A stretch of 62,835 nucleotides of DNA from the NCBI GenBank assembly GCA_046094425.1, contig JBJTHI010000158.1:1-62835 (forward strand), in the 5' to 3' direction. The notes below the pieces were generated by a model, which saw only the letters and a program-made list of their open reading frames with translations, ran no database searches and had not been told where the DNA came from. Positions 61,991 to 62,835 of this stretch are shown here, in pieces. The position numbers and the translations under genes are program-made. How positions within the stretch are numbered: position 1 is the stretch's first letter; the number at the start of each line of letters is the position of its first letter. This DNA is from Burkholderiales bacterium. Its GTDB lineage: Bacteria > Pseudomonadota > Gammaproteobacteria > Burkholderiales > Burkholderiaceae_C.

Positions 61991-62644
61991 ATGTTGCGTA
62001 CCGCAATCGCATCGGCCCTCTTGGGCGTGGCAACGGCTGCTGTGGCCGTGCCTGTCGTTACTGTCGGTGGTACCGCAGTGGCAGGGCAAGGTCAGTTCTC
62101 CAGCGAGTCCGGCGTGACCACACTCGATTTCAACGTGGGCAGCGTTTTGCCGTCTGGCGTGACATTGACGGCTGCAGCCAGCAATTTTGTGTCGGGCAGC
62201 CTGGCCGGCGTCTACGCCGCTCCTCCGGGAGATTTTTCGCAATACTTGACCGTGAGCCCCGCGTCCGGAACGCCTGTGTCCATCAGCTTGGCTACTGCTG
62301 CGAACTACATCGGTTTTTACGCCGGAAGCTTGGACGCCTTCAATCTGATTGAGTTCTACAACGGCTCGACCCTGGTGTCCTCTTACACAGGCAGTGATTT
62401 GGCCGCCTTGGCTGGCGTGCCCGCGAACGGGGATCAGTCCATTGGCCGTTACTTCAACGTATTTGAAACTGGCAACAGTTTCACCACGGTGTTGTTGACC
62501 TCGAGCCAAAACGCATTTGAGCTGGACAATTTTGCAATTGGCGTTGCCGGACCTCCCAGCCAAGTGCCACTTCCAGGTACTTTGTCGCTCTTCGGTTTGG
62601 GCCTGGTTGCCGCTGCGGTTGGCCGCGCCAAAGCAAAGAAGTGA
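61991..62644 (+). CDS. PEP-CTERM sorting-signal protein
   Basis: Signal peptide. The C-terminal VPLPGTLSLFGLGLVAAAVGRAKAKK combines a PEP-like motif, a TM helix and a basic tail. Confidence 0.85.
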   Translation: MLRTAIASALLGVATAAVAVPVVTVGGTAVAGQGQFSSESGVTTLDFNVGSVLPSGVTLTAAASNFVSGSLAGVYAAPPGDFSQYLTVSPASGTPVSISLATAANYIGFYAGSLDAFNLIEFYNGSTLVSSYTGSDLAALAGVPANGDQSIGRYFNVFETGNSFTTVLLTSSQNAFELDNFAIGVAGPPSQVPLPGTLSLFGLGLVAAAVGRAKAKK

Positions 62645-62667
62645 TTTGATTCTTAGTCCGCCGAAAG

Positions 62668-62702
62668 AAAAAGAGGCTTGAAAATTTCAAGCCTCTTTTT
62701 TA
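62668..62702 (+). terminator. rho-independent terminator of the PEP-CTERM gene
   Basis: AGAGGCTTGAAA-a-TTTCAAGCCTCT followed by a T-run. Confidence 0.8.
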
Positions 62703-62703
62703 T

Positions 62704-62835
62704 GTGCGCCCAGCATGGGCGCACTCCTGCGGGTGCAAGTCCCGCCACGAGCTGGTCACAGCGAGTGAAGTGAAGCGCAACTGCATGAGGGTGACCGAGT
62801 GTGGGAAGGAAGCGTGGAGCATAAATCGCGAGCCG
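62704..62835 (+). mobile_element. 5' end (domain I start) of a group II intron, class C-like, truncated by the window edge
   Basis: It starts with GTGCG, immediately after the terminator T-run. GTGCGCCCAGCATGGGCGCACTCCTGCGGGTGCAAGTCCCGCC closely parallels the start of the Oceanobacillus iheyensis IIC intron (GUGUGCCCGGCAUGGGUGCAGUCUAUAGGGUGAGAGUCCCG, recalled from memory). A later GGGAAGGAAGCG parallels its GAAGGAAGCGG. Confidence 0.6.

Follow-up and report, generated by a model that had tools for sequence, protein, structure and literature searches.

The 5' end of a probable mobile class C group II intron directly behind an intrinsic terminator in a Burkholderiales genome

Background

Class C (IIC) group II introns of bacteria have been described as a group with distinct hallmarks that targets transcription terminators (PMC1702495, PMC4424553). 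Three marks can be read in the RNA, namely a CGC that replaces the AGC of domain V, a distal stem of the same domain that is 2 bp shorter, and a conserved AGGAA in the epsilon-prime region (PMC1702495). B.h.I1 of Bacillus halodurans (PMC1702495) is among the described elements closest to the one reported here: both insert a few nt past terminator stem-loops, pair IBS1 with EBS1 over 3-4 bp, have CGC for AGC and a shorter distal stem in domain V, carry AGGAA, encode a protein that lacks an endonuclease domain and occur in several copies per genome. The element differs from B.h.I1 by its host, which is here a betaproteobacterium (Burkholderiales), by its sequence lineage, by being known from sequence alone, and by its copy number, since five copies are mentioned for B.h.I1 vs. 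ca. 21-23 here.

A second point of comparison is O.i.I1 of Oceanobacillus iheyensis, the IIC intron that has been crystallised, in a form without ORF. Its first ca. 40 nt, its GAAGGAAG block and a domain V of the form GAACCGCC...GGUGGUG are features which we take to be alike in both elements, while the family described here differs in carrying a full RT/maturase, as read from copies in a congener. When compared by HMMER score with solved structures, the protein encoded by these copies has the GsI-IIC RT (6AR1) as its best relative with 430 bits over residues 60-446, followed by 7UIM (302 bits), deposited as 'Group II intron reverse transcriptase/maturase', and then by 5HHJ/5HHL. All of them resemble it in combining RT and thumb/X with no endonuclease. 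The last three structures (7UIM, 5HHJ and 5HHL) are presumably those of class C proteins from gut Firmicutes. The IIB protein 6ME0 and the IIA protein LtrA gave only ca. 130 bits. Finally, the IIC-attC introns (S.ma.I2 type) share the ribozyme class and also recognise a DNA stem-loop; they differ in targeting integron attC sites, whereas the copies examined here all lie behind a hairpin followed by a T-run.

The stretch of DNA analysed as a whole, hereafter the window, is 62,835 nt long and corresponds to contig C158 of an assembly of 353 contigs and 3.47 Mb. We estimate at about 95% the probability that its last 132 nt (62704-62835) are the 5' end of a mobile bacterial class C group II intron located behind an intrinsic terminator.

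Results

A group II intron 5' end at the end of the window

The features found at this end of the window, all on the forward strand, are as follows.

61991..62644, +, gene of an exosortase-dependent surface protein with a PEP-CTERM-type C-terminus (217-aa ORF)
62667..62703, +, intrinsic terminator composed of an A-run, a GC-containing hairpin (core 62672-62696) and a T-run
62700..62703, +, IBS1 (TTAT), last four nt of the 5' exon, with 4/4 pairs to AUGA including one G-U
62704..62835, +, class C group II intron, initial 132 nt (5' portion of domain I), 144.3 bits with covariance model R1, ended by the contig end
62704..62724, +, conserved 9-bp hairpin (RNAalifold consensus helix 1) that contains the 5' splice-site GUGCG (62704-62708)
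62729..62745, +, domain I hairpin GCGGG-UGCAAGU-CCCGC (helix 3), matching the RF02003 consensus
62807..62811, +, class C signature AGGAA (epsilon-prime region) in conserved alignment columns

The 217-aa ORF matches NF050191 (Npun_F0296 family exosortase-dependent surface protein domain) with an E-value of 3.6e-25 and 89 bits vs. a cut-off of 29, and its C-terminus gives weak PEP-CTERM matches. From its stop codon onwards, the sequence reads as an A-run, the hairpin, a series of T's, the dinucleotide AT and then GTGCGCCCAGCATGGGCGCAC from 62704. The core of the terminator, AGAGGCTTGAAA/TTTCAAGCCTCT, forms a perfect hairpin (62672-62696) with T's at 62696-62701, so that the intron starts 2 nt past the hairpin and T-run. 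Folding of the 45 nt that precede 62704 gave -21.2 kcal/mol, 7 of the last 9 nt are T and a self-complementary match spans 62668-62700. A simple consensus terminator scan of the window did not list the hairpin at 62672-62696, which folding shows clearly. A reading made earlier from the sequence only had placed a hairpin with a T-run at these very positions behind a PEP-CTERM gene, and the sequence, the fold and the NF050191 match all agree with it; the coordinates given in that reading were found to be correct throughout.

The same sequence-only reading had proposed that a GUGYG group II start follows the terminator. GTGCG indeed begins at 62704, the block GGGAAGGAAGCG is found at 62803-62814 and the block GAAGGAAG agrees with the Rfam group-II-D1D4-3 consensus. 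When the window alone was compared with Rfam, the match obtained was sub-threshold (group-II-D1D4-4, 24.2 bits vs. a gathering score of 49, E 0.0069). A covariance model, designated R1, was built from 63 aligned introns of other genera, with none from the genome under study or from the congener genome G001 described below. It matched 62704-62835 with 144.3 bits (E ~1e-33) over model positions 1-131 of 132, the 3' side of the match being ended by the end of the window. This match fixes the boundary at 62704, and the window does end 132 nt into the element, as had been claimed; a covariance-model match, which the earlier reading held to be essential, was thus obtained from introns of other genera.

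The predicted structure of this segment is conserved. In helix 1 (62704-62712 with 62716-62724), pair 9-13 occurs as A-U (42 sequences) or G-C (17), and pair 4-18 as C-G (62 sequences) or, once, as U-A. Compensatory changes occur in three of the five pairs of helix 3, with 99.7% of cells paired. Overall, the consensus structure of the 63 relatives comprises 40 pairs, 15 of which display compensatory changes, with 98.6% of cells paired; none of 500 shuffles equalled the observed values and slid registers collapsed. Four of the AGGAA columns (104, 106, 107 and 108) are invariant in the 63 relatives and the fifth (105) nearly so. The predicted 21-nt hairpin that encloses GUGCG might, in a reading that we consider rather improbable, be more than a consequence of sequence conservation and act as a functional alternative structure, for instance one that restrains splicing or that mimics a target stem-loop.

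Occurrence of the element in the same genome

The last ca. 140 nt of the window recur at 23 places of the same genome with 89-100% identity, nearly all of them at contig ends, and the first 132 intron nt of the window are 100% identical to most of the other copies. Upstream of GTGCG, the sequence differs in each of the 23 copies and always consists of a GC-rich hairpin and then T's. These unique flanks speak against a spread in which flanking DNA was duplicated along with the intron. With a terminator defined by a dG <= -12 kcal/mol and >= 5 T within the last 9 nt, 21 of the 23 copies are located behind a terminator, as compared to 0.8% of 2,000 positions drawn at random from this genome. A homing context downstream of terminators had been put forward from the sequence, and it holds for these 21 copies as well as for ca. 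60 relatives (see below).

A second repeat family, present in ca. 21 copies, terminates in ...CCCCTATGCCGAT, each copy having a unique 3' flank. It carries the last ca. 30 codons of an ORF (...TIAYFDR.GVPRLS, then stop) and two hairpins. The interior of the family (ca. nt 231-1700), which would hold the ORF and domains II-IV of the window copy, is absent from the assembly, and the ORF was read from the copies of G001. The contig ends 132 nt into the element because intron copies collapse in short-read assembly, as is usual for repeats that exceed the k-mer of the assembler. In the five congeners, matches to the family amount to 5, 2, 1, 0 and 0, vs. ca. 21-23 nearly identical copies in the genome under study.

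One further copy, on C223 (9011-9443), is reduced to its last 116 nt, with ca. 200 nt of other sequence upstream; beyond these lies yet another repeat family whose ends are found on C192, C267, C189, C345, C154 and other contigs.

Two other types of group II introns were detected in this genome. Contig C283 (L011:1-1479) carries a second, distinct class C-like intron with a 421-aa RT/maturase frame, the only RT gene assembled in this genome, and with domains V-VI that score 40.5 bits with RF00029 at 1281-1354. It was considered as the collapsed interior of the multi-copy family and rejected, its RT region being only 74% identical and its 3' flank being its own. A divergent 5' end found on C29 (ca. 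89-90% identity) may belong to the C283 intron. The third family occurs as two or three 3' ends (C250:1-150, C251:5941-6085 and C19:2590-2659). The C250/C251 copies have a canonical AGC domain V (GAGCCGTATGAATCGAGAGATTCACGTACGGTTC; RF00029 57.7 bits) and are unrelated in sequence to the window family; by its domain V, this third family is not class C.

Full-length copies in a congener

The closed genome G001 of the same genus (CP050901.1, labelled Rhizobacter sp. UKL202a) carries the element five times, with 97-98% identity to the window over the initial 132 nt. At locus L024, the element occupies positions 201-2080 (1,880 nt), lies directly behind a terminator and has ...CCCCTATGCCGAT as its 3' terminus. 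The two end families found in the genome under study map to the two ends of this element, with ca. 96-98% identity for the 5' end and ca. 95-100% for the 3' end. The site itself looks empty in the genome under study, the flanks being 483 nt apart on C300:12541-13590 vs. 1,954 nt in L024.

The L024 element matches Rfam models RF02001 (group-II-D1D4-3; 114.2 bits vs. a gathering score of 32) and RF01998 (group-II-D1D4-1; 39.5 bits vs. 35). The former match starts at intron nt 82, so that its first 51 nt lie inside the window. The Rfam comparison proposed earlier thus succeeds for the 97-98% identical full-length copies and stays below threshold for the window taken alone. The RT/maturase ORF that had been predicted downstream is also present in the G001 copies: starting from its first GTG, it encodes 468 aa and matches TIGR04416 (group II intron reverse transcriptase/maturase) with 396 bits for a cut-off of 300. 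The product has the Pfam domains RVT_1 and GIIM only, with YADD present; no endonuclease domain was found in it with Pfam.

The last 78 nt of the family fold with -48.9 kcal/mol (z = -5.8). In the predicted fold, domain V has a CCGCC.../...GGUGG base, a 2-nt bulge on the 3' strand and a 3-bp distal stem. Domain VI is predicted to contain a bulged UA whose A is located 8 nt from the 3' end, and the last bases of the intron are ...GCCGAT; between lineages, a compensatory change from GGCA/UGCC to GGGA/UCCC is observed in this domain. The 3' end with domain V is found on ca. 21 contigs, including C12, the partner of the window (see below). When the sister intron on C283 is aligned to the Rfam model, the positions of the AGC triad are taken by CGC, with the usual G-U, and the distal stem is 4 nt shorter. 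A domain V with an AGC triad had been expected some 1.8-2 kb downstream; domains V and VI do close the 1,880-nt element of G001, and the triad is CGC, not AGC. Finally, RF00029, the Rfam model of domains V-VI, gave no score for the 3' end of this family in searches of the whole genome, of 2 kb (E <= 1) or of 111 nt (E <= 10), which is a failed test of that model and not of the structure.

Relatives in other genera

A search with the protein encoded by the G001 copies retrieved ca. 600 related loci, and the 80 that were kept span Burkholderiales, Rhodocyclales, Pseudomonas, Marinobacter, Acidobacteria, Myxococcales and Longimicrobiales. The same 5' end is located directly behind a hairpin and T-run in about 65 of these 80 loci, 63 of which make up the alignment used for R1. 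Intron size is also conserved, with 1,827-1,883 nt in 60 relatives as compared to 1,880 nt in G001, in keeping with the small size of class C elements, in which a ribozyme of ca. 0.5 kb and the ORF together stay below 2 kb.

One of the loci inspected (L039; contig NZ_JBMLSK010000235.1 of a Roseateles MAG, 2,872 nt) displays, at ca. 1868/1869, a 3' end ...CCCCTATGCCGAT joined directly to a 5' end GTGCGCCC. This junction could stem from a tandem insertion or a circular form, or else from an assembly that wraps around a repeat.

Recognition of the exons

The EBS1 loop follows GGGC at ca. intron nt 176 and is highly variable among relatives, with 27 distinct tetramers among 62. In 44 of the 62 relatives, its first four nt form 4/4 pairs with the end of the 5' exon (last four nt). 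Shuffling of the exons among the introns yielded a mean of 6.5 and a maximum of 17 in 10,000 trials; none of the 10,000 shuffles attained the observed mean and sliding the register destroys the signal. For the family of the window, the loop is AUGA, as seen in the copy on C69 and in the G001 copies. When the 23 copies of the genome under study were compared with AUGA, 12 paired at 4/4 positions, 10 at 3/4 and one at 2/4. This contact is the EBS1-IBS1 pairing of 3-4 bp known from class C introns. The position of an IBS2 is occupied by the terminator hairpin in every copy of this genome.

On the other side of the intron, 13 of 21 copies have a T as the first base of the 3' exon, as do 36 of 60 relatives, which fits a single EBS3-IBS3 pair. 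No EBS3-IBS3 covariation was shown among these copies or the relatives, the candidate loop UAGAA hardly varying.

The 3' partner of the window copy and the occupancy of its site

The surface protein gene and its terminator are conserved within the genus, the hairpin being kept in the congeners G001, G004 and G005. In G004 and G005, the orthologous terminator is followed directly by ordinary intergenic DNA, with no match to R1 at either locus. When the window flank up to 62703 is joined to C12 from position 231 onward, the resulting sequence aligns with the G004 and G005 loci in one piece, without a break at the junction. The latter two are therefore empty sites, and C12 is the contig that holds the 3' junction of the window copy. 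A convergent 348-aa ORF ends 35 nt beyond the 3' end of the intron, which is thus flanked by two convergent genes and lies at a two-way terminator; since the hairpin is symmetrical, it could serve both.

Positions 140-230 of C12 are the last 91 nt of the intron and are 100% identical to the family. They are preceded (C12:1-139, L037:1-139) by the terminus of an IS-like repeat that abuts these 91 nt at the stop codon of the ORF. This repeat ends in ...TGTCACTAATCAGG, has a start codon that reads inward (MTMNRVQFQAGLSM...) and is present in 17 copies, each differently flanked and nearly all at contig ends; none was found in the five congeners. Its equivalence with an IS5-type end at positions 1-141 of the window was considered and rejected, no similarity being detected.

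The simplest view of these junctions is that the window copy is a full intron and that an insertion sequence, of which only the right junction was assembled, probably interrupts its domain IV. Alternatively, the window copy could be a dead, internally deleted remnant made of 5' and 3' stubs around an insertion sequence. The abutment of the repeat on the last 91 nt at C12:139/140 is compatible with such a deletion, the interior of the copy is absent from the assembly, repeats visibly cut short other copies of the same genome (see C223 above), and G001 has an ORF-less remnant of ca. 490 nt at the same terminator. We nevertheless regard this alternative as unlikely: identity is 100% with most copies over the first 132 nt and with the family over the last 91 nt, which suggests an insertion too recent to have decayed much, and the IS-like repeat has the same terminus here as at its 16 other sites, in line with a simple insertion.

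An assembly artefact, in which a repeat node would have been wrongly joined to the terminator with no intron at this site, is very improbable. It is true that the contig ends exactly in the ca. 140-nt overlap common to ca. 20 contig ends, a signature of a branch in a de Bruijn graph, but the unique flank continues unbroken into the repeat and the geometry of the junction is that of the other copies, with a hairpin, a T-run and an IBS1 that fits EBS1. In addition, C12 carries, right after an intron 3' end, the sequence that lies behind the terminator in G004 and G005, and both insertion junctions therefore exist.

The remnant of G001 mentioned above lies at the orthologous terminator (L035:138-627; CP050901.1 ca. 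486087-486576). It is from a different class C lineage, R1 giving it only 16 bits (L035:139-262). Since this terminator carries a remnant of a different lineage in G001 and is empty in two other congeners, comparison of the loci suggests that the same terminator has been hit more than once.

Discussion

Every class C feature tested here was found, EBS2 absence and EBS3 aside, and the element is of a well-known kind. That it belongs to group IIC, as had been proposed from the sequence, is supported by the CGC of domain V, the AGGAA motif, an RT devoid of endonuclease domain, the EBS1-IBS1 pairing and the terminator context. There is hardly any room for a IIA or IIB intron, or for another terminator-associated repeat such as a REP-like element, a retron or an sRNA: the silence of RF00029 on the 3' end and the weak Rfam match of the window alone would be in line with one of these, but the CGC triad, the short distal stem, AGGAA, a 4-bp EBS1-IBS1, an endonuclease-less IIC-like protein, a size of ca. 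1.88 kb and terminator targeting are all present, and the one family with a canonical AGC in this genome (C250/C251) is unrelated in sequence.

With the element taken as a class C intron, its mobility would follow the scheme described in the literature, in which the excised intron RNA and its protein would reverse-splice into DNA just past terminator hairpins (PMC1702495, PMC4424553). The stem-loop would be recognised by its shape, without base pairing, and the 4-nt EBS1 loop (AUGA) would read the last four bases of the exon (TTAT), together with one base of the 3' exon. According to the same literature, cDNA synthesis would be primed by the nascent strand at a replication fork because the intron protein has no endonuclease. 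Insertion behind terminators would spare host genes, and the family would in this way have spread to ca. 21-23 sites of the genome. One could go further and propose that the lineage is in an active burst and that some terminators are true hot spots, with two lineages at the same terminator in two species; we consider this extended reading rather improbable.

Conclusions

For annotation, the class C intron explains where the window contig and ca. forty other contig ends stop. It also implies that ca. 20 terminators of this genome carry a retroelement which gene callers will miss since its interior is not assembled. For the biology of these introns, the behaviour observed is textbook class C and adds little, and both the high copy number and the interruption of this copy are local details. 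The 27 guide tetramers found among 62 relatives constitute a natural data set on EBS1-IBS1 retargeting, and one terminator site displays a presence/absence polymorphism among congeners. Finally, this high-copy lineage could serve to study how the proliferation of class C introns is controlled.
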